This document shows, piece after piece, positions 1 to 61,525 of a stretch of DNA of 64,000 nt (position 1 is the stretch's first letter; each line of letters begins with the position of its first letter). Origin of the DNA: a bacterium. GTDB lineage: Bacteria; Hinthialibacterota; Hinthialibacteria; H5-UNCL2. Made by a program: the position numbers and the translations under genes. Under the pieces are notes generated by a model. That model did not search any database. It saw only the letters and a program-made list of their open reading frames with translations, and had not been told where the DNA came from. Location: the NCBI GenBank assembly GCA_015075175.1, contig JABTUV010000006.1:159271-223270 (forward strand). The letters are read 5' to 3'.

Positions 1-282
1 GCCGAGGATGACGGCAAACAGCGCCAGCGTGAGTCCCCGCGAGAACGGCGCCCATCCCAGGCTGGGTATGATCCACGCGCCATAACCCAAGAGGAGCATC
101 GCCAGCGGCCGCGAAAGTCCCCAGCCGGCGTCGGGCAGATGTCGCGCGAACATGAACACGATGGGAAACCCGACCAGCGCCAGGAGCTGAAAGAAGAAGA
201 ACCACCGCCGGCCGGGATGGCGCGCGGTGCGGTCGAAGATGCTCCGCCCTTCCTGGTGTTTCAGCACGTCCGTGAGCGTGAT
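1..282 (-). CDS. DUF2298 (YYY membrane protein)-like region, partial; probably the frameshifted continuation of the GT39 gene
   Basis: Open minus frame reads ITLTDVLKHQEGRSIFDR...FQLLALVGFPIVFMFARHLPDAGWGLSRPLAMLLLGYGAW, resembling a DUF2298 N-terminus; a 1-nt shift near 283 would join it to 261..2699. Confidence 0.55.
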   Translation of the reverse strand, partial: MTLTDVLKHQEGRSIFDRTARHPGRRWFFFFQLLALVGFPIVFMFARHLPDAGWGLSRPLAMLLLGYGAWIIPSLGWAPFSRGLTLALFAVILG

Positions 283-2699
283 CGGGCTGCTTCCGGCGGC
301 GGCGACAGGAGGTATTGGCGCAGTTGCTCCGGCGGGACCTCCCGCACTTTCTTAAAGATCGTCACCTTGGGATGGTCGTAGCAATGCGCCGACTCTTCCA
401 CGAGATCGTCGTTGAAGACGATCCCCCACAGGCGCGGATACTTCGTCTCGACGTGAACCAACTCGAAACCCAGCACGCCGGTAAAGAGCAATCGATAGAA
501 ATTGCCCGACGTGGGATAACGGTTGGGCAGGCGCAGGATGGAACCGTAAAGGCGCTTGCTGCTCCAGACGATATAATCCGCGTTGGAGAGCCGCGTGACG
601 AGGTGCGAGAGTTTCCGGTTGCGGTCCTGGCCGTGCTCGATGTCCTCGTTGTACATCTGCAGGTCGGAGTCGCCGCTGGAAAGGCGGAAATAGCTGAAAG
701 GGGACTTGTCGGCGTGCTTGGCGGTGGGAAGGGGGACTTGATCGTCCCAGTGCTCCTTGACCACGCGCGCGTTGCGGGGCGCGTTTTCGTACAGCCAGTT
801 GGAGGCGGCCATGCGCGTGTTGAGGTGGCTGAACATGTTCTGCAGGGCGAAGGCGTAGAAGACCGAGAAGGCCATCGTGCCCGCGCCCACCAGCCCCGTG
901 ACGACCCGCCAGCGCCGGCGCGGGAAACGATCCCAGACGTAAACCAACAGCCACGCCGCGCCCATGATGAAAAAGGGATAGAGCGGCATCATGTAGCGCA
1001 GAAATTTGGCGTGCCAGCCGCCCACGATGTAGAAGTACGGCAGCGCCCACGAAAGAAGCAGCCAATGCGCGTAGGTTATGTCGCCTCGCCTTCCCCAGCG
1101 GTAAGCGGCGAAGGCGATGAAGGCGAGAAGGCCGGCGATTCCCAGAAGCCCGAGCGGTTCGCCCAGGCTGTAATCCACCAGGTTCTTGAGCTGGAAGAAA
1201 TAGGGCACGGTCCCCGCGAACTGGCGCGTGTAGGGCACGTCCCCCTCCGCTTGCGGGCCGCCGACCACGCGGCCTTCGTAGCGGATGGACTCCTTCCACT
1301 TGTCTTGGCGGATGAACTGCATGGGGGCAAGCGTGAAGGCGACAGTGAGGGCGAGGAAGAGGATGATGAGGGGGCCAGCAAGGGCACGCTCGACCAGGCC
1401 GGGGACAGGCGCCGATTTTCCTGCGGGGCTGGGTACGTCTGGCGGAAGTTTTTCCTGGAAAATCGGCGACTGTCCCGCGCGCTCCTGTCCCTCAGAGCCG
1501 CGTCCCATACGGAAGGGATAGAGCGCCAGAGACGCCAACAGCCACGCGGCGGCGACGGGAAAGAGCAGATTGGCGGCGGCGAAGACGAGGGCGTATCGAA
1601 GGGCGACGGCGAAGACGCGGGAGAATGCCGCCAGAGCATCGGCGGGAGTGGCGCCGCCCTGCCAGAGCGGGGTGCGATACACGACCACTGGGGCGCGTTT
1701 GCTCTCACCGGGACGTACGAGGCCGTAGCTGATCTGCTCGTCATACGTCAACTGACCGGCCCGGTAGGCCTTCCAGCGCGCGGCGGGAATCGCCGCCAGC
1801 CGGGGGGTCGTCAGCGCCGGCCCCAGCCACTGGTCCAGCCTGCGCCCCAGTTCGATTCGCTTTTCTCGCGCGATGGGGTCGCGGATGGCGCTCACATCGT
1901 CGAAGTAATGAAATCCCACGAGTACCGGATAAACGGTAAGGGCGACGGAGTAGGCCAGCGTGAGGACGAGCACGACCTGCGCCACGAGCGCGCGCCGGCG
2001 CACGGCGGGCGATTTCTCCTCGCGCTCCCACTGCACGCGCATCCGGCTCAACCAGGCGACGCCGACGGGGGCCAGAAAGGTCAGCGCGGAAAACTTGGTC
2101 GCCAGCGCCGCACCCAAAACGACCCCGATGGCCACGGCGTCCAGCCAGGCCTTAGCGCCCGTGTCGAAAATCCATCGCCAGCACAGGTAGAGCACGAACA
2201 GAAGCCGACGACCAGCAGCGTCTCGACCGTCGAAGTAGTGCGAGCTCTGGATGTGGTGGAAGGCGAAGGACATGAAGAACGCCGACAGCATCCCCACGCG
2301 CCGTCCGAAGAGGCGGCCGGCCAGAAGATAGATGAAGAGAATCGCCAGCGTGCCGTAAATCCCGGACAGGAGGCGCCCGTAGTAGTTGAGCGTGCCGCCG
2401 GAATAGTACGAGACGGGGCGTCCGGAAAGTCCCGCCAGCGCCTGCGCGACCATCTTCGAGACGTAGAAGGGAAAGGTGCCGTAGGCGAAAAAGTCGGGAT
2501 AGAGCGACGAATCGGCGTCCAGGGTGACGTTGCTCCAATTCACCCGCTCGGTCGCGTGGACGATGTTGCGCTCGTCGGAGTGCTGATAGGTCGAGTCGTT
2601 GCGCTCGGTGTCGGTATAGTCCCACTTGAGGTTGGTGCAACGCAGGTAGCCGCCCACGAAGACGAGCAGGGCCAGCGCGGGCAGGATGAGGCGTCTCAT
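261..2699 (-). CDS. GT-C glycosyltransferase family 39 (ArnT/PMT-like) membrane protein
   Basis: HSDE motif after TM1, PDFFAYGTFPFY, GAALATKFSA, KFLRYMMPLYP, EHWDD, YDHPKV; many TM segments. Confidence 0.8.
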   Translation of the reverse strand: MRRLILPALALLVFVGGYLRCTNLKWDYTDTERNDSTYQHSDERNIVHATERVNWSNVTLDADSSLYPDFFAYGTFPFYVSKMVAQALAGLSGRPVSYYSGGTLNYYGRLLSGIYGTLAILFIYLLAGRLFGRRVGMLSAFFMSFAFHHIQSSHYFDGRDAAGRRLLFVLYLCWRWIFDTGAKAWLDAVAIGVVLGAALATKFSALTFLAPVGVAWLSRMRVQWEREEKSPAVRRRALVAQVVLVLTLAYSVALTVYPVLVGFHYFDDVSAIRDPIAREKRIELGRRLDQWLGPALTTPRLAAIPAARWKAYRAGQLTYDEQISYGLVRPGESKRAPVVVYRTPLWQGGATPADALAAFSRVFAVALRYALVFAAANLLFPVAAAWLLASLALYPFRMGRGSEGQERAGQSPIFQEKLPPDVPSPAGKSAPVPGLVERALAGPLIILFLALTVAFTLAPMQFIRQDKWKESIRYEGRVVGGPQAEGDVPYTRQFAGTVPYFFQLKNLVDYSLGEPLGLLGIAGLLAFIAFAAYRWGRRGDITYAHWLLLSWALPYFYIVGGWHAKFLRYMMPLYPFFIMGAAWLLVYVWDRFPRRRWRVVTGLVGAGTMAFSVFYAFALQNMFSHLNTRMAASNWLYENAPRNARVVKEHWDDQVPLPTAKHADKSPFSYFRLSSGDSDLQMYNEDIEHGQDRNRKLSHLVTRLSNADYIVWSSKRLYGSILRLPNRYPTSGNFYRLLFTGVLGFELVHVETKYPRLWGIVFNDDLVEESAHCYDHPKVTIFKKVREVPPEQLRQYLLSPPPEAARSRSRTC
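1402..1476. repeat. Inverted pair of GGGACAG(G/T)CRCCGATTTTCC element inside the GT39 CDS
   Basis: Arms 1402-1421 and 1457-1476 match 19/20; same family at 33390-33463 and 39458-39533. Confidence 0.8.
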
Positions 2700-4996
2700 G
2701 GGGTGGTTCCTCCGACAAGCACCTGGTAGATGCGGCCCGAGCCGGCGCCGCCGGGCCGGCCGGTGGGACCGAGAAACTCATAGGCGACCTTGAGGCGCGC
2801 GCCGGAAGACCTGGCGGCCTCGCGCTCGAACTTCTCCAACCCCGCGCGGGGATAGGGGCGGTCGGGCGCGCCGGTGCGACTGTCGCGCTCGGTTTCGATC
2901 TCCAGCGTGCCTACCACGATGTACTGGATGCGGTTCTCGACGATCTGCGGCCAGACGGCGTCCAGGCTGGGATGGGAGTAAATCTGCTGGGCGACGGCGG
3001 CGCGCGGCTGGGCGATGCTGTAACCGAATGGCCCGCGCCAGACCTGTTCGTGGCCGACCCAGCCGATGAAGGCGGGCCGCCCCGCGTAAGTACTGATACG
3101 GGACTCGCGGCTGTAGGCGAGATGGCCGGGCCGCTCCAGGATGACGGCGCCGGGGGGCGTCTCATCGCGCAGCCAGCGGGCGATGCCCGCGTCCGCGGGC
3201 ATCGACTGCTCCAGCCAGCGCCCGCCGTCCAGCGTGGCGGGACGCGCCCGCCACTTGTAGCGGTTGGCCGTGACGCTGAGCGGATAAAGCAGCGAACCGG
3301 CCAAGAGTATCGCCAGCGGCGCGCATACCAGGACGACCCCGGCCTGCGAACGCCGACGCAGCCGCCGCAGCGCCGCCGCCAGAAGGACCGGTAGAAGCGT
3401 TCCCAGTATGATCCAGACCGGATAGAAGAACTTGAAGGTGGTGTTGTAGCGGGGACTGTAGCCGTCCACGATGTAGAGCGTCTCGCAGCCCAGAAGCACG
3501 CACAGGCAGAAGAAGAGTCCGCCCCAGGCCAGCGTCTCCATGCGTCCGAAGGCCTGGGTGTAGAGAAGAAACAAGATGGTGAGGGCGCCGGCGAAAAGCG
3601 CGGCGTAAACCAGGCAGCCGGTCGCCATCCAGACGATGACGAGCACGAGCAGCAGCATCCCGCCGAGGACGCCGCCGATCTGCGCCCGTCCGTAGCGCAC
3701 GCGCGCCAGCATCGCCGCAACCGCCACGCCGAAGGAGACCATCGAGATCGCCAGCGGCAGTCCCCACATGGCAAGATACTCGCCCAAATCGCTCCTTTTC
3801 GGGACCCAGTTCACGAGCGGCCCGGACTGCGGGGACGTAAAGGTCAAAAGAAACGGCGAGAGAAAGAGTCCCGACAAAACTCCCACTCCGGCGATGATCA
3901 GGCCGGATAAGAGGAGGCCGGAAAGGCGCGCGCGCCGTAGGTCGGCCAGCCGTGCCAGAAAGACCACCGCGAAGAGCAGCCCGCCGAAGCTGGGCAGATC
4001 AAAGATGTTGGTCCAGCCCATGACGGCCAGCCAGAGGCCGGAGATGACGGCCAAGGCGGCGGTGCGCGTGCGACGGCATTGCAGCATCCACTCGCGGCGT
4101 CCCAGCGCCAGCCAGACGCCGCAGAGAAAGATCGCCACAAAGGTCAAGGGCACGTCCATCACGTGCGGATGCATGTCGGCCACTTCGCCGTAAGAGAAGA
4201 AAGGGAACTCGGTGATGTTGCCGTCGGGATTGCCCGGCGGCGGATCGACGATCACGCGGCTGGCCTTCCAGACGTCGATGCCGAGAAGCGGCTTGCCCAG
4301 GATCATGATTTCGTAGAAGGCATAGAGGTTGCCGGAGAGCATGACCAGCACGGCGGCGAAGACGGCCCAGCGGAGGCGGCGGGTAAAACAGGCGGCGACG
4401 GCAAACGCGCCCAGGCACGCCAGGGCGAAGAGCAGCGCCAGGTTGACGTTATAGGCGAGGGTGGACCGCGCGCCCATCGCTTTGGCCCAGGTCGCCGCCG
4501 CCATGTAGCCGCCATAGTAGTAGTTGACGCGATAGCCGGAGAGCCAGGGGTCCAGCGGCGGAATCACGCTGTGGTGGTAGAGCGAGTTGAACATGGCCAA
4601 GTCCATGAACTTTTCCTGGCCGAGGATGTCGGGCCGGGCGCTGCGCATGAGGGCGAGATAAAGGTGGGCGACGAGAAAGAGCGCGATACCCGCAAGAATG
4701 AAACGTCGTCCGGCGCGCCAGAGCCGCCCCAGCCGCGCCCGCCGCAACCAGAGAAACGCCAGCGAGCCGCCCGACAGGAGAGACAGGAGAATCCAGATGG
4801 TGGTCGCCGCGTAGGGAAGGCGGAGAAATCCGAGCATCCAGAGAAGATAGTTGAGGAGTCCCCAGCCGAGCACGGGCGCCAGGAGCACGGCGGGCGCGCG
4901 GCGCGCGGACAGAAACGGCCACAAGGCCAGAAGGCCGATAGGACTGACCAGCAAAAGAAAAATCCAGGCTGGTAGACTGGCCCAGAGCACGTGCAT
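2696..4996 (-). CDS. DUF2298 / YYY-domain membrane protein
   Basis: GQEKFMD, PPLDPWLSGYRVNYYYGG, ITEFPFFSY..DMHPH, RYNTTFKFF, GWVGHEQVWR; ATGA overlap with the downstream gene. Confidence 0.85.
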   Translation of the reverse strand: MHVLWASLPAWIFLLLVSPIGLLALWPFLSARRAPAVLLAPVLGWGLLNYLLWMLGFLRLPYAATTIWILLSLLSGGSLAFLWLRRARLGRLWRAGRRFILAGIALFLVAHLYLALMRSARPDILGQEKFMDLAMFNSLYHHSVIPPLDPWLSGYRVNYYYGGYMAAATWAKAMGARSTLAYNVNLALLFALACLGAFAVAACFTRRLRWAVFAAVLVMLSGNLYAFYEIMILGKPLLGIDVWKASRVIVDPPPGNPDGNITEFPFFSYGEVADMHPHVMDVPLTFVAIFLCGVWLALGRREWMLQCRRTRTAALAVISGLWLAVMGWTNIFDLPSFGGLLFAVVFLARLADLRRARLSGLLLSGLIIAGVGVLSGLFLSPFLLTFTSPQSGPLVNWVPKRSDLGEYLAMWGLPLAISMVSFGVAVAAMLARVRYGRAQIGGVLGGMLLLVLVIVWMATGCLVYAALFAGALTILFLLYTQAFGRMETLAWGGLFFCLCVLLGCETLYIVDGYSPRYNTTFKFFYPVWIILGTLLPVLLAAALRRLRRRSQAGVVLVCAPLAILLAGSLLYPLSVTANRYKWRARPATLDGGRWLEQSMPADAGIARWLRDETPPGAVILERPGHLAYSRESRISTYAGRPAFIGWVGHEQVWRGPFGYSIAQPRAAVAQQIYSHPSLDAVWPQIVENRIQYIVVGTLEIETERDSRTGAPDRPYPRAGLEKFEREAARSSGARLKVAYEFLGPTGRPGGAGSGRIYQVLVGGTTP

Positions 4997-9200: not shown

Positions 9201-9355
9201 TGTCATTTCGACCGCAGGGAGAAATCTTCCCCGCCGCTAAAGCGGGTCGGACAACACAGAAGATTTCTCCCTGCGGTCGAAATGACAGAGAGGTCCCGCG
9301 GTGGAGTGGGTGTGCTGCATTGTGGGGAAGATTTCTCCCTGCGGTCGAAATGACA
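9201..9355. repeat. REP-like family TGTCATTTCGACCG(C/A)AGGGAGAAATCT, three copies (one forward, two reverse)
   Basis: Copies at 9201-9227, 9261-9287, 9329-9355. Confidence 0.9.
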
Positions 9356-9629
9356 AAGAACGCGCCATCCGCGCCGCGGCAGGCGAGGGTTTTCGAGGCA
9401 AGCGGGTTCACGCAGGAGTTGACGGGAGAAGTGGTCTGGGATTGGCCGCGCTAGACGGCGTCCGTCGATACAGGCGCCGCGGCGGACGCAACCACGACTC
9501 GACGCGCGCGCGAGTGGAATCACGGCGTGGTTGAGCGCGCGATTGGCGGTTTTTCCCGCGAAGGAATGTTAGGCTCTCGTCAGGCGGGTGGGACAGGCGT
9601 TCCCGCCCGTGAGCGGTGGGCGAGGGTCG

Positions 9630-47662: not shown

Positions 47663-48670
47663 ATGCGCGCAGGCCGGACGGACTCCGAGTTCCGCTACCG
47701 CATCCAGCGCAGCGAACGGCCCTTCAACTGGTCGCTGTTCCGCGGGCTGTTTCTGATCGCGTGCTGCCTGTTGCTGATCAGTCTCAACGTGCGGAGCGAG
47801 TTCGGCGACTCGCTTTCGTCCTACGTGGTGCTGCCGTTGAACTACATCTATGGGCAGGCGCGGGAGGGCGTCCTGTCGGCAGGGGACGCGGTGGCGCGGC
47901 ACTGGGAGGCGGCGCGGCGGCTTGGCGCGGTCGAGGCGGAGAACGCCGATCTGCGCGACCAGTTGACGGCGCTGTCGCTGGAAGTGACCCAGTATCGCGC
48001 CATGGCGGCGACCTGGGGGTTGCACCAGTATTTCGGGGAGGCGCGCACGTTGCCCGCCGCCGTGATTGCGGTCTCCGACGATCCCCTGCGCCGCACCGCG
48101 CTCCTGGACCGGGGCGAAGTGCACGGCCTGTCCAAGTACATGCCGGTGGTCGTAGCCGGCGCGTCGGGGGAACCCGTACTGGTGGGACGCATCGTGGAGG
48201 TGCGCCCGTATGCCGCCCTCCTCCTGCTCGTGGTGGATCCGCAGAGCGCCGTCGCCGCCGTCGTTGCCAACGAGGTTCTTTCGTCTACCGAGGTTCTTTC
48301 GCCTACTTCTCTCATTGCGACTACCTCTGTCATTTCGACCACCTCTCTCATTTCGACCCCTTCTGTCATTTCGACCGAAGGGAGAAATCTTGTCCACGGC
48401 ATGGTGCGGGGGACGGGGGAGGGGTGCGTGGTGTCCGTACCCCGCGATGCCGAGTTGTCCGCCGGTGATCTCGTCTACACCTCGGGGCGCGGCGTCTATT
48501 TTCCTCCCGATCTTTACCTGGGTCGTATCGCCGGCCAGCATCCGGACGCGGCGGGCCTGGACCTGGTCTACCGGTTGGAGCCAGCCTTTCGCCTCTCCGA
48601 CCTGCGGGAGGTCTTGATTCTGCCCAATCTGTATCGTGATGACGCGCAGAAGTTGGGGGTGGGGCCGTGA
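47663..48670 (+). CDS. mreC: Rod shape-determining protein MreC with a repeat-derived insertion
   Basis: TM, AENADLR coiled coil, LDRG..HGL...MPVV, LVGRIVEV, GDLVYTSG.G..FPPDL.LG; synteny with mreD-mrdA-rodA. Confidence 0.88.
   Translation: MRAGRTDSEFRYRIQRSERPFNWSLFRGLFLIACCLLLISLNVRSEFGDSLSSYVVLPLNYIYGQAREGVLSAGDAVARHWEAARRLGAVEAENADLRDQLTALSLEVTQYRAMAATWGLHQYFGEARTLPAAVIAVSDDPLRRTALLDRGEVHGLSKYMPVVVAGASGEPVLVGRIVEVRPYAALLLLVVDPQSAVAAVVANEVLSSTEVLSPTSLIATTSVISTTSLISTPSVISTEGRNLVHGMVRGTGEGCVVSVPRDAELSAGDLVYTSGRGVYFPPDLYLGRIAGQHPDAAGLDLVYRLEPAFRLSDLREVLILPNLYRDDAQKLGVGP
48272..48391 (+). repeat. Six 18-bp units ending in a full GTCATTTCGACCGAAGGGAGAAATCT, in frame in mreC
   Basis: Encodes EVLSST EVLSPT SLIATT SVISTT SLISTP SVISTE GRNL. 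Confidence 0.88.
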
Positions 48671-49169
48671 AGACAACCTGGCGGCTCGCATCGCCGCGAC
48701 TGCTGTCACCGCGGCGGCTCCTGTCCCTGCGACAACTTTTGTCATTTCGACCGCTCTTGTCATTTCGAACGTTCCTGTCATTTCGACCGCTCCTGTCATT
48801 TCGACCGAAGGGAGAAATCCCCCTGCACCCTCTTGCTCCTCCCAGCACGACACGCAAGATTTCTCCCTCGGTCGAAATGACAACGGCGAGGACGCGCAGA
48901 AGTTGGGGGTGGGGCCGTGAAGACAACCTGGCGGCTCGCATCGCCGCGACTGCTGTCACCGCGGCGGCTCCTGTCCCTGCGACAACTTTTGTCATTTCGA
49001 CCGTTCCTGTCATTTCGACCGTTCCTGTCATTTCGACCGAAGGGAGAAATCCCCCTGCACCCTCTTGCTCCTCCCAGCACCATGCGCAAGATTTCTCCCT
49101 TCGGTCGAAATGACAACGGCGAGGACGCACAGAAGTTGGGGGTGGGGCCGTGAAGACAACCTGGCGGCT
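48641..49169 (+). repeat. Tandem duplication (250 + 233 bp) with three copies of the 46-bp mreC/mreD junction
   Basis: GACGC(G/A)CAGAAGTTGGGGGTGGGGCCGTGAAGACAACCTGGCGGCT at 48641, 48891, 49124; each unit holds a REP inverted pair. Confidence 0.92.
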
Positions 49170-49676
49170 GGTGGTTCTGGGCGTGGTTCTGTGCGGGGCG
49201 CGCTATCTCTTCGCGCCCGACCTCTGCGCGCGCCTGCCGGCCGAGTGGGCGCCGGCCTTGCGGCTGGAACTGCCGCTTTTCTGGTTCTCTATCTGACCTT
49301 GCGGGCCGATACCGGCGTGGCCTTGACCACCGCCTTCTGGACGGGACTTCTGGCCGACATCCTGCTGTTGAACGCTGGCCTGCGGGCGCTGATCTTTCTT
49401 CTCGTCGCCATCGTACCCGATCTGTTGCGCAAGTATCTGCTGGTCGAAGGCTCCTCCCAGGCTGGTTCTTTCTCATGGGAGGTTGGCGCTGCTGGCGTTC
49501 CTGGTCCCCATCGTGGAACCGACGGAGCGGGCCTGCTGCCGCTCATGCGCCGGCCGGACTATTGGCGCGGGTTGGGCGTTTACGTTCTGTCCAACACGCT
49601 GTTCATGGTTCCGCTGCTCGGCTTACTGGATTTTGTGCGGCGGCGGTTCAAACTGCTGGAGGAGGGAGAGCCGTGA
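49150..49676 (+). CDS. mreD: Rod shape-determining protein MreD (frameshifted)
   Basis: GTG at 49150; hydrophobic; AFWTGLLADILL...GLRAL; lies between mreC and PBP2. Confidence 0.65.
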
Positions 49677-51498
49677 AGAAGGCCGCGCGCGGCAAGCCCC
49701 AGGCGCCTCCTGCCGCGCCCAGGCGCACGTTGTGCGCCTGGGTGTGCTCGTGCTTGTGGTGGTCGCGCTGCTGGGCTTCCGCGTCTGGGTGCTGCAACTG
49801 GTGGAAGGCGAGAAGTATCGGTACCAGGCCACGCTCAACTATCAGAAGGAAGTGGTCGTGCCGGCGCTGCGCGGCGACATCCTGGACGCCCAGGGCCGGC
49901 TATTGGCTGCCAATCGTTCCCGCTACGACCTGGTAGTGGACACGGGTCATTACAACACCAAGGTCCTGCACGGCAGCCTGTGGCGGTTGGCGCCGGTGCT
50001 GGAGCAGTCGCCGCGCGAACTCATCTCCGCTTTGGAACGCGCCCCCAAGGTGCTGGGCGAGGCAGTGCTGATCGCCAACGTCTCCGACGATCTGCGCATC
50101 AAGCTCCTGGAACTACAATCGGAATTGCCGGGCCTGTCGGTAGCCGAGAAGGCCCTGCGCTATTATCCCAACGGCGTGATCGGCGGACACGCGGTGGGTT
50201 ACATCCAGGAAGTCAGCGCGCGCGAACTGGAACGCGGCCTGAGCAGCGAATACGCCGCGGGCGACATGATCGGTCGCACCGGCCTGGAGGCGGCGGGCGA
50301 GCCTTGGCTGCGTGGCAAAAAGGGCCGAAAAACCGTGCGCGTGTTCGCCAGCGGGGTCGAGGACACCCGCTTCTACAGCGACGAAATCCGCCCCGACGAC
50401 GAGAAGGAGGTCCCCGGACTCACCCTTCAGAGCCATCTCGACCTGGACCTGCAGGCCCACTGCGAGGCGATTCTGGGCGCCTCGATCGGCAGCATCGTGG
50501 TGCTGGGCGCGTCCGGCGAAGTCCTGGCGCTGGCCAGCTACCCCCGCTTTGATCCCAACAACCTCACCGACTCGCGCCGGCGGACCATCCGCGAAAACCG
50601 TAACGAGTTCTTCGGCGCCATCGCGGGGACCTGGGAACCGGGATCGGTCTACAAGATGGTGGTGGCCTACGGCGGCCTCCTTGAGGGCAAGATCAATCCG
50701 CGCGAGACCGTCTTCTGCTCCGGCAGCATCATGCGGGGTAAATTCAAGTACACCTGCATGTCCAAGTGGGGTCACGGCAGCGTGGACATGCTCACCGCCA
50801 TCCAGAAGTCGTGCAACGTCTACTTTTACACGGTCGGCGAGCGTCTGGGCGTGGACAACCTGGAGAAGTACTCGCGCATGTTCAGCTTCGGCGCGCCGAC
50901 CGGTCTGGACATTCCAGGCGAGACGGGTGGTTTCATCCCCTCGCGGGCCATGAAGAAGGCCCGATTCGGCGGTTCCCGCTACCACGCCTACGGCGAGTGG
51001 CTGCCGGGGGAGACGCTGCACTCGTCCATCGGGCAGGCGCTCACGCAGGTGACGCCCCTGCAGGTCGCCGTCTACGGCCACGTGCTGGCCAGTCGCGGAC
51101 AGGGCTACCACCCCTCGCTCTTGTGGCGCGTATGGGACCGCGACCGGCTCGTCCACGAGTTTTCGCCCCGACCGCTGGACCCCATGCCCGTCGACGAGAG
51201 GGCCTTCGCCGTACTGGACGAGGGCATGTGGCGCGTGGTCAACCTGCCCAACGGAACCGCCTACAAGGCGCATCGGCCCGGCCTCTCCGTCTGCGGCAAA
51301 ACCGGCTCCTCCGAGCATCCCGGCAGCAAGACCCGCGGCGAGCCGACCCACGCCTGGTTCGTCGGCTACGGCCCGCGCGAGCATCCCCGCTATACCGTCG
51401 CGGTCTTTCTGGCCAAGGCCGGGCACGGCGGCGAATTCGCCGCGCCCCTGGCAATGGAGGTATTCGAGCGGCTCCTGGCTGATGCCCTTGCATCGTGA
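49673..51498 (+). CDS. mrdA: Penicillin-binding protein 2 (frameshift near 49725)
   Basis: RGDILDAQG, RYYP, IGRTGLE, EPGSVYK (SxxK), SCN, KTG, HAWF. Confidence 0.9.
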
Positions 51499-51746: not shown

Positions 51747-53209
51747 ATGGGGACGCATTCGCGCAGTGGGGTTCTCGATTTCGCGCGTGGGCGGATGATC
51801 CTTGACGTGGATTATCTGCTCATCGCGGCGGCGCTGTTTCTTCTGGCCGTCGGCATCTTCACGATCGCCGGGGCGACGCTGGATGACCCCCGGCCGGCCG
51901 TCGCCTCGCTCTGGAAAAAGCAACTGATCTTCGCCCTCGTGGCCCTGGGCGTGGGCGCGGCGGCGGTGGTCGTGGACTATCGCTGGCTGATCAAGTATGC
52001 CTATGTGTTTTACGCGCTCAGCCTGCTCCTCTTATTGGCGCTGTACCTGCCCGCCATCGGACACAGCGCCAAGGGCGCGCGCAGCTGGCTGGAGCTGCCT
52101 TTCGTCAACTACCGCTTTCAACCTTCCGAAGCCGTCAAGTTTGCGCTGATCCTGGCGCTGGCCAAACATCTCTCCGGCCTCGGGTCAGGAGACCCGAGCC
52201 ACCCCCAGCGGTTCGCCTCCCTGCTCTCCACTCTGCCGGCGCTCGCCTTGACCGCCGTGCCGGCCTTCTTGATTCTGATTCAACCCGATCTCGGCTCAGC
52301 CGTCATCCTGCCGCTGGTCGTCCTGGGGATGCTCTACGCCGCGGGCTGCCCGGCGGGACGCCTGTTCCTCCTGTGCGCGCCCGCCTTGGCCGCCCTGCCC
52401 CCCATGCTCTGGCGACTGGAAGAGACCCTCTCCGGCCCCGCCTGCTTCTTCATCTTCTGTCGGTTTCCTGATCCTCGTCATTCTCTGAACCTCCGCCTGC
52501 GCACCCGGCCGGCGGAGATCGCCGTCCTGGCGGGGCTGGCCGTCGCCGGCTTCTGGATCGTCAGCGAGCATTTCGAGGACGCCTGGAACCACCTGCATCC
52601 CTATCAGCAGGATCGCATCCTCGCCTACCTCTATCCTGAGGGGCAACCAGAACGACCAGGGCTGGCAGGTGCACCAGAGCAAGATCGCCATCGGCTCTGG
52701 GGCCTGTCGGCAAGGGCTGGCGGCAGGGCACGCAGAATCAACAGCGCTTCATGGCCGAGAAGCACACCGACTTCATCTTCTCGGTGCTCGCCGAAGAGCA
52801 GGGTTTCATCGGCTGTCTGGCCTTGCTTCTGGGATTCGCGGTAATCTTTCTGCGCGGTACGATGATCGCGGTTGGCAGCAGACACTTCGGCGGGATGCTG
52901 GCGGCCAGCGGAATCGTGGTGATTCTGGCCAGCTACGTCTGCTTCAATCTGGCCATCTGCATGGGGCTTCTGCCGGTGACGGGGTTGCCCCTGCTGTTCA
53001 TCTCCTATGGTGGGTCGTCGCTTTTGACGGCGATGGCGGCGGTAGGGCTGCTGGTGAACATCCGCCTGCGCAGGAACGCAACGACGCCCCCTAACAAGGA
53101 TTCTGCCGGGAGTCCCAAGACCTATGGGACGCATGGGCCCTGTAGGACGCCGATCGCGGCGCATGCCAACCCGCTTTTTGGTTTGTCGGAGAATCTCCCC
53201 CGCGATTAG
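51747..53209 (+). CDS. rodA: Rod shape-determining protein RodA (frameshifts 52440-52740)
   Basis: GARSW, FQPSEAVK, QPDLGSA, YQQDRI, QSKIAIGSG, EKHTDFIFSVLAEE.GF, PVTGLPLLFISYGGSS. Confidence 0.9.
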
Positions 53210-53320
53210 ACTGTGTCCCAATCGTGGTGGATGAAGCCTGCTCGAGATGAGAGACACCTGCCCGCGCGCCGCCCGTCCCGGCGGCACGGGGCGGCGAACG
53301 TGTGCGGTGGGAGCCGCGGG

Positions 53321-56300
53321 ATGAACCACTTTTCGTACTATGTGCCGCACGTGATCGCGCTGGGTTTCGGCGCAGCGGGTTTGTACGCCCTGACGGCGGG
53401 ACTCCGGGCGCGCCGACGCGACCGTGCGCTCAGCCGGTTCGCCCTCTCGACCGCCGCGTTGGTTCTGGCCGCGCTCGTGTCCGCGGGGGGCCTTTGCTGG
53501 CGCGAGATGCGCTTCTGGCAGACGCAGACGCTGGACTACCTGGCGCCGCTGGAGGGTTGGGAGCTGGCCCGCGCCTGGGCCGCCTTCATCGTGCTTCTGG
53601 CCCTCGCCGTCCTCGGCTTCGCCCTGCTGGTGCGCCGACGCGGTTTCTGGCGCGTCTCCACGGCCCTTCTGCGCGTCTCCTTTCTATCCCTCATTCCCAC
53701 CACGTTCCTGTTCTTCGACAGCTTCATCGCCACCAGCCAGCTGGTCTACAAGGAGACGGTCAGCGTCGTCCTCATCGGCATGATGGCGTTCTTCTGGGCG
53801 CTGCGCGCGCTGGGGTCGGGGCGTTTTCGGCTGCTTCTCACGCCGTACAACTATCCCGTGCTGCTTCTCTGGGCCGCCGCCGGACTCACGCTGGCCTGGA
53901 CGCCGAGCCGCTACCTGACGCTACTCAACTTCGTCTATCTCTCCGCCTACCTGGCGATGTTTTTCATGATCGCGCCGGAACTGAAAGACCGCCGATACTT
54001 GCGCGTAGGCATGGGGGTATTCCTCTGCACGCTGGTGGTGGTGGCGGCGGGGTCGGTGAGTCAGATGCTGCAATTCTACTGGGGGGGACTTCTTTTTGCG
54101 CCCGAGCCGGCCAACGTGCGGGCGGCGCTGGGCTCGACCATCGGCCACAACAACGCCGTCTCGGAAGTGATGATGATCGGCGTGATCTTCGTATTGGGCC
54201 TGGCGCTGCTGACGCGCGCGCCGCGGCGCCCGCTGTGGGTGATTTTGGCGACGCTGTTTCTGCTCGTGATCGTGGCGGCGACCACGCGCGGCGTCTGGCT
54301 GTCGCTGCCCTTGGCGGTCGCTTATTTCGTGCGTTACGCGCAGACGGGCTTCGGCACGCCGGCGGCGCCCGTTCCCTGGCGGCGCCGGGCGGGACGCTGG
54401 GTTTTCGCCGGCGTCCTGGCCGCCTTCATTTTGAGCGGCGTCGTCGTGGTCGTCAACCACGTGGCCCGCCGCCCGGGCGCGACCCACGCCATGGTCCCCC
54501 TCATGACCCGACTGTCGGAATTTTCCTACGAGATGAACGTCCGGGGGACCCGCCCCCGCCTCTGGACCATCGCCGTGGTGATGATCGCCGACCAGGTATC
54601 CCTCTCGCGCGACGAATTCGGCCAGCCGCCTTTCCTGGGTCAAGGACTGTCGGCCTTCAAGTGGCGCTATCCCATCTACCAGGCGCGCTTTTTCAAGGAG
54701 CATCCCAAAACACTGGTCTGGCCCACTCACCTGCACGCGGACCGAATGCACAACGAGTATCTGCAACCGATCGTGGAGCTGGGCGTGCCGGGAGCGGTGT
54801 TTGTCATCTGGTTTCTCTTGGCGCACGCCCGCTTCTGCCGCATGGTGCGGGCGCTGCGGCCGGAGCGGGGGCGGAGGGTCTTGCAGATCACGTTTGCCGC
54901 GGCGCTGGTGGCGGGACTGTTGCACATGATCGTGAACTTCAGTTTTCACGTGGCCCCGCTGGCGGTGCTGCTCATATTCAACTTCGCCGCCTTCGCTGCG
55001 CTCGGACCCACGCGGGTCCGCGAGTGGCGCTTCGCCGGCGCGCGCGACAATCCCACGCTTTTCGCGGCGGGAATGGTGCTGTCGGCGTTTGTCTGCGGAT
55101 GGCTGCTCCTTTTCACCGTGCGGGTGGTTTACGCGGAGTTCTACCTGCACCTGGGCCGGGTCTACCGCGACGCGGCGATCAACGCCGCGCAGAGCGGATC
55201 GGCGCGGGACCGCGAGCAGGCGCCGCTCCTGGCGCGGGGATGGAAGGAGGCGCTGGGGCGCGGCCTCGCGCACGTGCCCGGCGAGTACCACATCAACCTG
55301 GAGATGGCCCAGTGCTACATGTTTCTTTTTGACCTGGACAAGACCAACGTGCAGGTGGACCTGCTCCTGTCCGCGCTGACGCACGTCAACCGGGGGATGC
55401 AGGAATACCAGCACAAGAGCGTCTACTTTACGCGGGGGCTGCTGTTGCGGGACCTGGCGCAGCTGGCGGCGACCCGGCGGTTGACGCCCACGCCCAGGAT
55501 TTCCAAGTCCGACGTGGATTACCTGCGCGAGCGGGCGCTGGCCGACGCGGAGCGCGACCTGCGCCTGGCCTCGGACATGTTTCCGGTCGAGTACGCCGAG
55601 CCGGTGACGGACGAGGACCTGCGGCCGCTGCATGAGCTGGGCAAGCTGTATTACGTGCAGGGGCGGCACAAGGAGGCGTTCGCAGCCTGGCGGCGCATCC
55701 AGGCGCGGCGGCCCACCTACGCCGAGGATTTCCACCTGGCGGCGGCCCGCGAGGCGCAGCAGGCCGGCGCCATCCACGAGGCCGGCGTCAGCTACCACAT
55801 CGCCCGCGAACTGGCGCCCCGGAACCCCGACATCTGGAGCGCCTACCTCAATTGCTACCTGAGCATTCCCGGTCAGGGCGAGCGAGCGCTGGAGCTGGCG
55901 ACCGAGTTCATGCAGGCCTTTCCCACCAGCGTGGCCGCCTTCGCCCAACTCTCTTACACCGCGCACGTCACCGGCAAGCCGGAGCGTGTCTTCAACCTGG
56001 CCACGCAGTACCTGGCGACCGTGGGCGCGCAGCCCGCCAACATCGACGAGATCATCATTTTCGGAGGCGTCCTGTACAATTACGCGCGCTGGGACCTGTT
56101 GGCGCGCTGGCTGGACGCGGTGGAAGTTCGCAGCCGCGAGCCGCGGCTGGTCCTGTTTGTGGAGAACTTCCGCATGGCCGCGGCGGTGCAGGAGGGAAGC
56201 TGGGCGCGCGCCGCCGCCTTGGCGGAGGGCGTGCTGGCGAGGCGGCCCGGCGATCCCACCGCCATTTCCGTCCTGCGCGGCTCGCTCTTCTTCCTGGCGC

Positions 56301-56359
56301 TGCCGGTTGTGATGGGGGCGGACATCCGGCCGCTCTCGGAAGTCGTCGCGGAGCCGTGA
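53321..56359 (+). CDS. O-antigen ligase (Wzy_C)-family membrane protein with C-terminal TPR-like repeats
   Basis: STIGHNN, TRGVWL, RLWT.A..MI, PFLGQG, HNEYLQ..VELG..G; helical C-terminus. Confidence 0.8.
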   Translation: MNHFSYYVPHVIALGFGAAGLYALTAGLRARRRDRALSRFALSTAALVLAALVSAGGLCWREMRFWQTQTLDYLAPLEGWELARAWAAFIVLLALAVLGFALLVRRRGFWRVSTALLRVSFLSLIPTTFLFFDSFIATSQLVYKETVSVVLIGMMAFFWALRALGSGRFRLLLTPYNYPVLLLWAAAGLTLAWTPSRYLTLLNFVYLSAYLAMFFMIAPELKDRRYLRVGMGVFLCTLVVVAAGSVSQMLQFYWGGLLFAPEPANVRAALGSTIGHNNAVSEVMMIGVIFVLGLALLTRAPRRPLWVILATLFLLVIVAATTRGVWLSLPLAVAYFVRYAQTGFGTPAAPVPWRRRAGRWVFAGVLAAFILSGVVVVVNHVARRPGATHAMVPLMTRLSEFSYEMNVRGTRPRLWTIAVVMIADQVSLSRDEFGQPPFLGQGLSAFKWRYPIYQARFFKEHPKTLVWPTHLHADRMHNEYLQPIVELGVPGAVFVIWFLLAHARFCRMVRALRPERGRRVLQITFAAALVAGLLHMIVNFSFHVAPLAVLLIFNFAAFAALGPTRVREWRFAGARDNPTLFAAGMVLSAFVCGWLLLFTVRVVYAEFYLHLGRVYRDAAINAAQSGSARDREQAPLLARGWKEALGRGLAHVPGEYHINLEMAQCYMFLFDLDKTNVQVDLLLSALTHVNRGMQEYQHKSVYFTRGLLLRDLAQLAATRRLTPTPRISKSDVDYLRERALADAERDLRLASDMFPVEYAEPVTDEDLRPLHELGKLYYVQGRHKEAFAAWRRIQARRPTYAEDFHLAAAREAQQAGAIHEAGVSYHIARELAPRNPDIWSAYLNCYLSIPGQGERALELATEFMQAFPTSVAAFAQLSYTAHVTGKPERVFNLATQYLATVGAQPANIDEIIIFGGVLYNYARWDLLARWLDAVEVRSREPRLVLFVENFRMAAAVQEGSWARAAALAEGVLARRPGDPTAISVLRGSLFFLALPVVMGADIRPLSEVVAEP

Positions 56360-60098: not shown

Positions 60099-61525
60099 AT
60101 GTTGAAGCGCAGTTATCCCTACTATCTGGCCAACCGAGCGGTCGCGGCCAACCGCGAGTTGGAGGTCGTCAACAAGTACACGCGGAAGGTCGCCACGCGG
60201 GTGGCGTTGGCGGACGGAGCGGCGCTCGCGGAGGCCATCGGGCGCGCGGGGGATGCGGCGGCGCCGCTGCGGCGGCTGCCGGCGCATCGCCGCGCGGCCG
60301 TCCTGCATCATCTGGCGAACGGAATGAGCGCGCGCGCCGAAGAGCTGGCCGAGGCGCTGGCCATCGAGGCGGGCAAACCCATCCGCGACAGCCGCGTCGA
60401 GATCACCCGCGCCATCGACACCGTGCGCATCGCCGCCGAGGAGGCGCTGCGCCTCTACGGCCAGTATCTGCCGCTGGACATCTCGCCCCGCGCCGAGCAT
60501 TTCCAGGCCATCACCAAACGCGCCCGTGGGCGTATGCGTTTCATTACGCCCTTCAATTTTCCCATCAACCCAGTCGCGCACTAAGATCGCGCCCGCCATC
60601 GCCGTGGGTTGTCCCTGGATTCTCAAGCCCGCCTCGGCGACGCCCGTGGGCGCGCTCCTCTTGGGCGAAATGCTGGCCGAGACCGATCTCCCGCCCGGCG
60701 CGTTTTCCATTCTGCCCTGCCACGGCAAGGACGCCGCGCCGCTCGTGGAGGATGAACGCATCGGGAAGATCTCCTTCACCGGTTCCGCCGAGGTGGGTTG
60801 GCAGATCAAGGCGCGTTCGGGCAAGAAGCGCGTCACGCTGGAACTGGGCGGCAACGCCGCCGCCATCGTGGACGAGGACGCCGATCTGGATTACGCGACC
60901 GAGCGCCTCACCTTCGGCGCGTTCTACCAGTCGGCCAGAGCTGCATCAGCGTGCAGCGCATCTTGGCGCATGAGAAGATTTACGACGCGCTGGTGCAACG
61001 GCTGGTCTCAGCGGCGGAAAGCTGGTCATGGGGGACCCGCTGGACGAGATTACGTTTCTGGGGCCGCTGATCACCGAGGGCGACGCAAAGCGGATCGAGC
61101 AGTGGGTGAAAGCGGCGCGGCAGGGCGGCGCAAGACTCCTCTGCGGCGGCAAGCGCAAGGGCGCGTTCTATTCCGCCACGCTTCTGGACAACGTCTCGCC
61201 CGACATGCAGGTCACTGCAACGAAATCTTCGGCCCGGTGGCCGTGCTGTACAGGTTCGGATTTCAAGGACGCCTGCGCGATGGTCAACGACAGCCGCTAC
61301 GGTCTGCAAGCGGGCGTCTTCACGCGCGACCTGCACAAGGCCTTCTACGCCTGGAACGAACTGGAAGTCGGGGGCGTCGTGGTCAACGACGCGCCCAGCG
61401 TGCGCGTGGACAGCATGCCCTACGGGGGCGTGAAGGACAGCGGGCTGGGACGCGAGGGGGTGCGCTGGGCGATGGAGAGCATGACCGAGGAGCGCTGCTG
61501 CTCTGTCGCGCGTCGGGAAAATTAG
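60099..61525 (+). CDS. Aldehyde dehydrogenase, disrupted by about five frameshifts (errors or pseudogene)
   Basis: EAGKP, ITPFNFP, LKPA, SFTGS, LELGGNAA, GQSCIS, EIFGPV, YGLQAG, PYGGVKDSGLGREG in shifting frames. Confidence 0.8.

Follow-up and report, generated by a model that had tools for sequence, protein, structure and literature searches.

A dispersed hairpin repeat has very probably become part of the coding sequence of mreC in a wastewater bacterium. We analysed a 64,000-nt stretch of DNA (forward strand of contig JABTUV010000006.1), hereafter the window, and give positions in coordinates of this whole window unless another contig is named. Its mreC gene (47663..48670, plus strand), an open reading frame (ORF) of 335 residues, carries a 120-bp in-frame insertion at 48272..48391 (plus strand) that codes for residues 204-243, EVLSSTEVLSPTSLIATTSVISTTSLISTPSVISTEGRNL. 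We mark this block as lineage-specific repeat DNA because it holds an exact repeat arm with its units, because orthologues lack the loop and because its GC content is repeat-like. The resulting loop is most likely a tolerated passenger, made by an array of partial repeat copies that probably grew in place.

The insertion is a row of half-hairpins that ends in a whole one. Five 18-bp partial copies of the arm's 5' half (48272..48361, plus strand), defined by a unit distance matrix and Tandem Repeats Finder, precede a complete 26-nt hairpin-repeat arm, TGTCATTTCGACCGAAGGGAGAAATC, at 48364..48389 on the same strand. This arm is an exact match and stands solo, having no inverted partner in mreC. 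The 25-nt arm pattern GTCATTTCGACCGAAGGGAGAAATC fits 48365-48389 in frame with 0 mismatches; the window as a whole gives 11 matches with at most 3 mismatches, and 100 shuffles gave 0. Read in an 18-nt register from 48272, the units encode EVLSST, EVLSPT, SLIATT, SVISTT and SLISTP, after which the arm contributes SVISTE-GRNL. An earlier note on this DNA had described an intact arm and five 18-bp half-units in frame at 48272..48391, and its coordinates and translations are exact. Tandem Repeats Finder places arrays of period 18 at 48271-48306 and 48297-48376 and also detects a period of 36.

Composition sets the block apart from the rest of the gene. Its GC content is 48% vs 68% for the remaining mreC, and 47% vs 86% at third codon positions (GC3); its 40 residues include 10 Ser and 8 Thr. 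The arm folds into a 9-position stem with two central G-A mismatches and a GAA loop (-5.0 kcal/mol). For the complete 120 nt the folding energy is -32.6 kcal/mol; shuffles average -21.9 (z -3.9), and none of 200 was as stable. BLAST of the 120 bp against the genome matched other loci only over the last ~65 nt, through the shared core, and the distal half nowhere else, so the array grew or diverged in place. A homologue search for the repeat-coded peptide (residues 202-245) in other proteins, with only 4 candidates, gave the query alone.

Orthologous MreC proteins align on both sides of the insertion and lack it. The closest relative, P0002, came from a collection of 5.8 billion proteins, and P0003, P0004 and P0005 from an exhaustive HMMER search of 1.84 billion representatives. 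The alignment with P0002 (298 residues, 56% identity, 99% coverage) contains a single BLASTP gap, residues 204-243, which corresponds exactly to 48272-48391. P0003, P0004 and P0005 (58, 47 and 42% identity; 295-300 residues) each give two matching stretches that break at residue 202-203 and have no loop. The earlier note had expected an orthologue gap at this place and had proposed a new loop built from non-coding repeat DNA; both expectations are borne out, by these orthologues and by the GC difference. No confirmed match to the P0002 DNA locus turned up in genome contigs or metagenome contigs.

A wider alignment places the loop at a turn that appears permissive, short in most MreCs and lengthened independently in a few. 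We aligned the query and P0002 with 140 of the 150 listed hits, 142 rows in all, leaving out the other ten, for the most part short or much longer proteins. At the site, bounded by query positions 203 and 244, 117 of the 141 other proteins have 3 residues and 135 have at most 6. The remaining 6 have 10-45: P0006 has 45 extra residues, P0038 25, P0078 21, P0023 20, P0033 13 and P0008 10. These insertions occupy the same alignment position as the loop described here, but their sequences are unrelated to it. The 45-residue insertion of P0006 (315 residues) is Thr/Pro/Ser-rich and visibly periodic, and may be an independent tandem-repeat expansion. When HMMER aligns the protein with P. aeruginosa MreC, the site falls between chain residues 75 and 76 of the latter, and the next strand corresponds to chain residues 76-86. 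A Region 2 arginine of that protein, Arg175, takes part in head-to-tail packing, according to the available part of PMC8137920. The strand after the insertion may carry its equivalent, with the numbering offset estimated.

The host gene has the marks of a working mreC, although the earlier note had allowed for a non-functional copy. Residues 134-320 match positions 1-146 of the 147-position Pfam profile PF04085 (E 5.6e-24; 85 bits vs a cut-off of 28). A whole-genome search found one full-length mreC, six further matches being confined to the repeat-coded part, and the reading frame is open. An AlphaFold2 model built on the 142-row alignment has a mean predicted local distance difference test (pLDDT) score of 83.8, with 94-98 in the beta core. 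It shows helices at 23-43 and 49-123 followed by strands, the order of an N-terminal membrane helix, a long coiled coil and a beta-barrel core. Foldseek matches the model to the solved MreC structures 7eft, 2j5u, 6zlv, 2qf4 and 5lp5_D with probability 1.00, and template modelling (TM) scores are 0.84 for 6zlv and 0.72 for 5lp5_D. The earlier note had proposed such a model; in it the insertion is a low-confidence coil (pLDDT 52-59) between the confident strands 196-202 and 243-250. The loop is therefore probably disordered, by prediction, and Ser/Thr-rich, in the extracytoplasmic domain of MreC.

Independent sequencing runs reproduce the insertion. Wastewater, sludge and bioreactor studies, 14 in all, contribute 20 public runs that contain parts of the window. 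We compared the window with Logan contigs, which drop rare variants, from four of these runs and four studies (X1, X2, X3 and X5). In each of the four, one contig extends from upstream mreC through the five units and the arm, without gaps and with at most one differing letter; these contigs cover 47663-48389 in X1 and X3, 48068-48389 in X2 and 47958-48390 in X5. A second contig, again in all four runs, leads from the arm at 48364/6 into downstream mreC and ends at 48670-48686. Short-read contigs thus break at the arm, as expected of a sequence present about 400 times. The contigs of the four runs contained no joint skipping the 120 bp and no variant in unit number, though rare length variants could escape them. 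The insertion is real and probably fixed.

The arm belongs to a large repeat family whose arrays stand on one side. The genome (G000; 4.98 Mb in 49 contigs, 84% complete) contains 424 arms with at most 3 mismatches, 223 of them exact. Most (314 of 424) form 157 convergent pairs with a commonest loop length of 37 nt, and 110 are solo. Arrays of 5'-half units lie upstream of 141 arms (152 with a looser rule), about a third, and most of the 141 are situated outside genes. Each unit is a partial 5'-half copy plus a few locus-specific bases, repeated in tandem with periods of 22, 18 and 17 nt in descending frequency. The locus-specific remainder measures 4-6 nt in 94 of the 141 arrays, regardless of period. 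Polarity is strong: a 5'-half copy lies upstream of 141 of 424 arms vs a 3'-half copy downstream of 3, and among the 110 solo arms, whose other side is unobstructed, the counts are 37 and 1. The identical 26-nt arm recurs in other families of the same class, with 74 copies in G017, 16 in G034, 15 in G015, 14 in G023 and 13 in G013, and was absent from 32 of the 40 other genomes searched. This patchy spread suggests transfer or long conservation.

Units diverge with distance from the arm, in mreC and across the family. Numbered 1 to 5 from distal to proximal, the mreC units stand at Hamming distances of 10, 10, 6, 3 and 4 of 18 from the arm unit. Similarity thus falls outward (4, 3, 6, 10, 10), as the earlier note had stated, with a Spearman correlation with distance of 0.87, a strength that 6 of 120 permutations reach. 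Even the outermost unit agrees with a proximal unit at 11 of 18 positions (binomial P 0.003). Genome-wide, among 26 arrays of at least 4 units, 16 diverge with distance, 3 show the opposite and 7 are flat (binomial P 0.004 for 16 vs 3), in a test that extended arrays by neighbour similarity and excluded the selected first unit. A simpler test, biased by the choice of unit 1, divided 62 arrays into 40, 4 and 18. The polar gradient is a trend of the whole repeat family and is not special to mreC. Such a gradient would fit a model in which units are born next to the arm and drift as they age.

Growth in mreC was not a plain series of single additions. The earlier note had units added one at a time next to the repeat, and the unit sequences do not support this part of its account as it stands. 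Units 1 and 2 differ at only 2 of 18 positions, while each differs by 7-10 from the remaining units, which indicates a later distal duplication. The second and third 36-nt blocks differ at 7 of 36 positions and are consistent with a two-unit duplication.

A repeat cluster in the gene for RimO (C6:69606-71213, minus strand) is consistent with a second in-frame insertion. There, ~70 repeat-coded residues lie in frame near the C-terminus; the stretch includes three tandem arms and reads FLPAVEMT and ISPCGRND. Residues 29-432 match TIGR01125 at 414 bits vs a cut-off of 357. T. maritima RimO aligns only to residue 443, and the RimO proteins of 12 of 12 same-class genomes only to ~432-450; by eye only, the tail after the insertion resembles the end of a TRAM domain. 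Thirty arm-containing open frames in the genome passed a GC3 filter, and 12 of them have coding-like GC contents at first and second codon positions (GC1 and GC2). By eye, only MreC and RimO among these 12 have an internal insertion, and the others look spurious with the exception of a tail on contig C45. The open-frame GC filter is crude, so the count of coding insertions is a lower bound. The C45 gene (C45:47234-49333) encodes a methyltransferase-domain protein with a ~90-residue C-terminal tail coded by an arm pair and 18-nt units. We rejected a candidate at C1:852181-852321, in a 506-codon open frame, as an in-frame case: its 18-nt array and arm, though open in the frame of a glutamate-dehydrogenase-like gene, belong to the leader of that gene and precede its likely start.

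The repeat is most likely of NTS/SRM type, judging by its sequence and surroundings, and serviced by a small Ssn-like GIY-YIG single-strand nuclease. Its arm follows the layout of the NTS consensus, with a YGTCATT head, a stem, a 3-nt loop, a stem and an AATC tail. A small GIY-YIG gene at C14:8950-9253, frameshifted in the assembly, matches PF01541 in two pieces of 22.1 and 18.6 bits at C14:8956-9172. Repeats surround this candidate. Upstream lie a degenerate arm and a 23-nt array; minus-strand arms at 9233 and 9283 overlap and follow the gene end, and an array and a plus-strand arm at 9463 lie beyond. The stop codon itself falls inside an arm. In G010, too, a GIY-YIG gene sits between two arms. 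Homologues occur in 5 of 8 other arm-bearing genomes vs 3 of 32 without the arm (Fisher P 0.004, for relatives that are not independent).

These features resemble a described system. In the portion of PMC11893778 available (Chenal et al. 2025), ssnA has a repeat-gene-repeat layout, and the N. meningitidis enzyme SsnA cleaves single-stranded DNA on the upstream side of the NTS, a few nucleotides away. Shared with that portion are the layout, a hairpin of ~9 positions, hundreds of copies and a flanked small GIY-YIG gene; the arm here departs from the SRM pattern by 2 positions, and the nuclease is only a candidate member of cd10448. The words 'tandem' and 'intragenic' are absent from PMC11893778, and half-unit arrays and coding insertions are untreated there.

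A second known class of repeat fits less well. The label given in the earlier note, repetitive extragenic palindrome (REP), holds insofar as the element is a hairpin repeat. It fails as a REP of the type tied to REP-associated tyrosine transposases (RAYTs): the head is TGTC and not GTAG, and the RAYT-like genes have no flanking arms, whereas an Ssn-like GIY-YIG gene does. Y1_Tnp (RAYT-like) genes lie at C46:238062-238388 and C5:16537-16746 with no arm within 2 kb, and the RAYT-like match to NCBIfam NF047646 is 70.1 bits, below the cut-off of 80. REPIN-RAYT systems, reportedly described by Bertels and Rainey in 2011 and by Nunvar in 2010, share inverted doublets as the main unit, a ~37-nt spacer and the presence of a RAYT-like gene in the genome. 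They differ from the case here, which has no GTAG head and no arm within 2 kb of the RAYT-like gene.

We propose that the array would have grown in place by local tandem duplication on the 5' side of the arm, as at about a third of arms. The 18-nt period and the stop-free V-I-S-T-E-G-R-N frame would have let the block survive selection in an essential gene. Older units, no longer full hairpins, would drift, and the polar gradient would follow. The side on which an Ssn-like nuclease would cut, 5' of the hairpin, is also the side of array growth; a causal link between the two is hypothetical. A more specific version of this mechanism, which we hold tentatively and think rather less probable than its negation, would make the half-hairpin arrays scars of the repeat's own Ssn-type nuclease. 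A nick 5' of the arm followed by faulty repair would duplicate the segment from nick to hairpin, so that new units would appear beside the arm and push older ones outward. With a period that is a multiple of three, coding sequence could then accumulate stepwise in essential genes, in MreC and, by a related route, in RimO. If so, protein loops would be a natural product of the repeat system.

Several points weigh against this account of a repeat captured by mreC and grown there as a passenger. The gradient in mreC alone is marginal, given the 6 of 120 permutations as strong, and the gradient tests are partly biased, with unit 1 picked for similarity and array ends fuzzy. Growth appears not to have been purely arm-proximal, given the distal duplication and the possible 36-nt duplication. 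Neutrality is assumed: the four runs do not differ in sequence, and rare variants are lost from Logan contigs. No contig crosses the arm with at least 31 letters on both sides. Linkage across it therefore rests on the window assembly, which is prone to indels (mreD, rodA, aldehyde dehydrogenase). As to the repeat type, the arm misses the published degenerate SRM pattern, the best fit needing 2 substitutions. The GIY-YIG gene is frameshifted here, and its pieces give nothing useful in NCBIfam or PDB. G017 has 74 arms, and no GIY-YIG homologue was found in it with this query. Exact tandem units are scarce in other arm-bearing genomes, whose assemblies are fragmented: 1 each in G017 and G013 vs 167 here.

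The loop could instead be an adaptation: a flexible Ser/Thr spacer, possibly O-glycosylated, that alters MreC self-association or its contact with PBP2. The lack of any difference in the block among the contigs of four runs, each from a different study, would suit such a role, as would the long insertions at the same turn in other MreCs, including the 45-residue Thr/Pro/Ser-rich one in P0006. We nonetheless think it unlikely, since GC3 of 47% vs 86% gives no sign of codon adaptation, and since the arm is an exact genomic repeat with similar arrays at 141 arms, mostly outside genes. Two further links to function, the possible Region 2 arginine on the following strand (with its estimated offset) and a gene with Wzy_C and TPR matches after rodA, are set against a disorder that is predicted by a model and a Wzy_C match of 33.1 bits vs a cut-off of 31.7.

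Two other explanations are less probable still. The block might act as nucleic acid, either as mRNA structure in mreC or as a single-stranded DNA nuclease or recombination site in the rod operon, with the loop a side effect. Its fold (z -3.9 vs shuffles) is what any hairpin repeat with partial copies should give. The richness of the rod operon in this repeat recalls the clustering of NTS repeats around particular Neisseria genes, described in the part of PMC11893778 at hand, but 424 arms in 5 Mb would place several in many operons, and we give this explanation little credence. That the block is an assembly artefact, or this mreC copy non-functional, is hardly credible. Single-base deletions do occur in mreD, rodA and the aldehyde dehydrogenase gene are split and contigs break at the arm, yet in all four runs the mreC sequence to the left and right of the arm is recovered without gaps, and the one mreD frameshift that could be checked vanishes in short-read contigs. 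The 335-codon frame is open, the core of the model reaches pLDDT 94-98, and the one full-length mreC is accompanied in the genome by mreB, PBP2 and rodA.

A captured repeat with an array grown in place extends a known phenomenon. Short palindromic repeats that are normally intergenic have been found in frame inside genes for known proteins, and clusters of GTAG- and CGTC-type REPs coding 43-82 residues are documented in several species, in the available portions of PMC3733652 and of the MITE review PMC10969869. Intragenic REPs were proposed to be tolerated since they lie in flexible linkers or loops, and intragenic CGTC-type repeats of R. conorii were equated with RPE-4 and RPE-6, in what is available of Di Nocera, De Gregorio and Rocco 2013 (PMC3733652). 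The earlier note had likened the mreC insertion to Rickettsia palindromic elements (RPEs); the analogy holds, and on the accessible text of PMC3733652 the relation is perhaps closer than analogy. Shared features are an in-frame position in a conserved gene, absence from orthologues and a surface loop. Compared with the RPEs and intragenic REPs in those portions, the insertion here consists mostly of 5'-half copies with a polar gradient and not of whole palindromes, it sits in mreC and it comes from a free-living wastewater bacterium.

What is new is thus not the in-frame REP insertion but the combination of one whole hairpin with a polar, decaying half-hairpin array, a polarity that holds across the family and the link to an Ssn-like gene. 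In our literature searches, neither this repeat sequence nor an MreC with a repeat insertion turned up, and the matches listed for 'GTCATTTCGA' look unrelated, judged by title. The locus preserves clear intermediates between a non-coding repeat and 40 residues of an essential morphogenetic protein, with the intact source at one end and older copies beside it. The polarity (141 vs 3 arms) and the roughly constant 4-6-nt part offer a handle on how NTS/SRM repeats and Ssn nucleases reshape genomes, a question that PMC11893778 leaves open in the part available. For MreC biology, the insertion marks the turn before strand 243-250 as tolerant of large insertions.

The rod operon around mreC is unusually rich in the repeat, with arms in mreC, two clusters between mreC and mreD and one pair after PBP2. 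The rod-system neighbourhood is present: mreD, PBP2 and rodA (FTSW_RODA_SPOVE) lie downstream, and mreB is elsewhere in the genome on contig C1. At the junction of mreC and mreD (48645..49165, plus strand), 46 nt occur in three copies, from 48645, 48887/8 and 49127. They comprise the last 26 nt of mreC and the first 20 nt of mreD, with the ribosome-binding site and GTG. Between the copies sit the two repeat clusters, made of degenerate units, an 18-nt array and an inverted arm pair. The triplication leaves mreD with two decoy starts, which lead into repeat-coded ORFs such as 48667-49113; parts of it (48683-48750) lack cover in the X3 and X5 contigs.

Frameshifts in the neighbouring genes trace at least in part to the assembly. 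The mreD gene (49151..49676, plus strand) is frameshifted: residues 1-47 of its orthologue P0154 (181 residues) align in the frame of the GTG at 49151, and residues 48-179 in a different one. In X1, X2 and X3 the contigs have one T more after 49276, which restores the frame, so this frameshift is an assembly deletion and not decay, and a pseudogene is ruled out for the one checkable frameshift. Across the mreD region, all four runs show 6-10 single-base gaps relative to the window. PBP2 (mrdA; 49483..51498, plus strand) is an intact open frame with Pfam PBP_dimer and Transpeptidase matches. Within 51747-53209, rodA is broken into two ORFs that match profile positions 6-184 and 248-353, and within 60099-61525 a gene for an aldehyde dehydrogenase is likewise split (positions 6-144 and 298-458); both may reflect further assembly indels.

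The earlier note had thought that the loop could be a glycosylation target, given GT-C genes in the window, and two other loci bear on this idea. Directly after rodA, 53213-56359 holds a 1048-residue ORF with a weak Wzy_C match (O-antigen ligase family) and TPR repeats. PMT_2 and DUF2298 membrane proteins are encoded at 264-4996, the PMT_2 gene lying ~45 kb from mreC.

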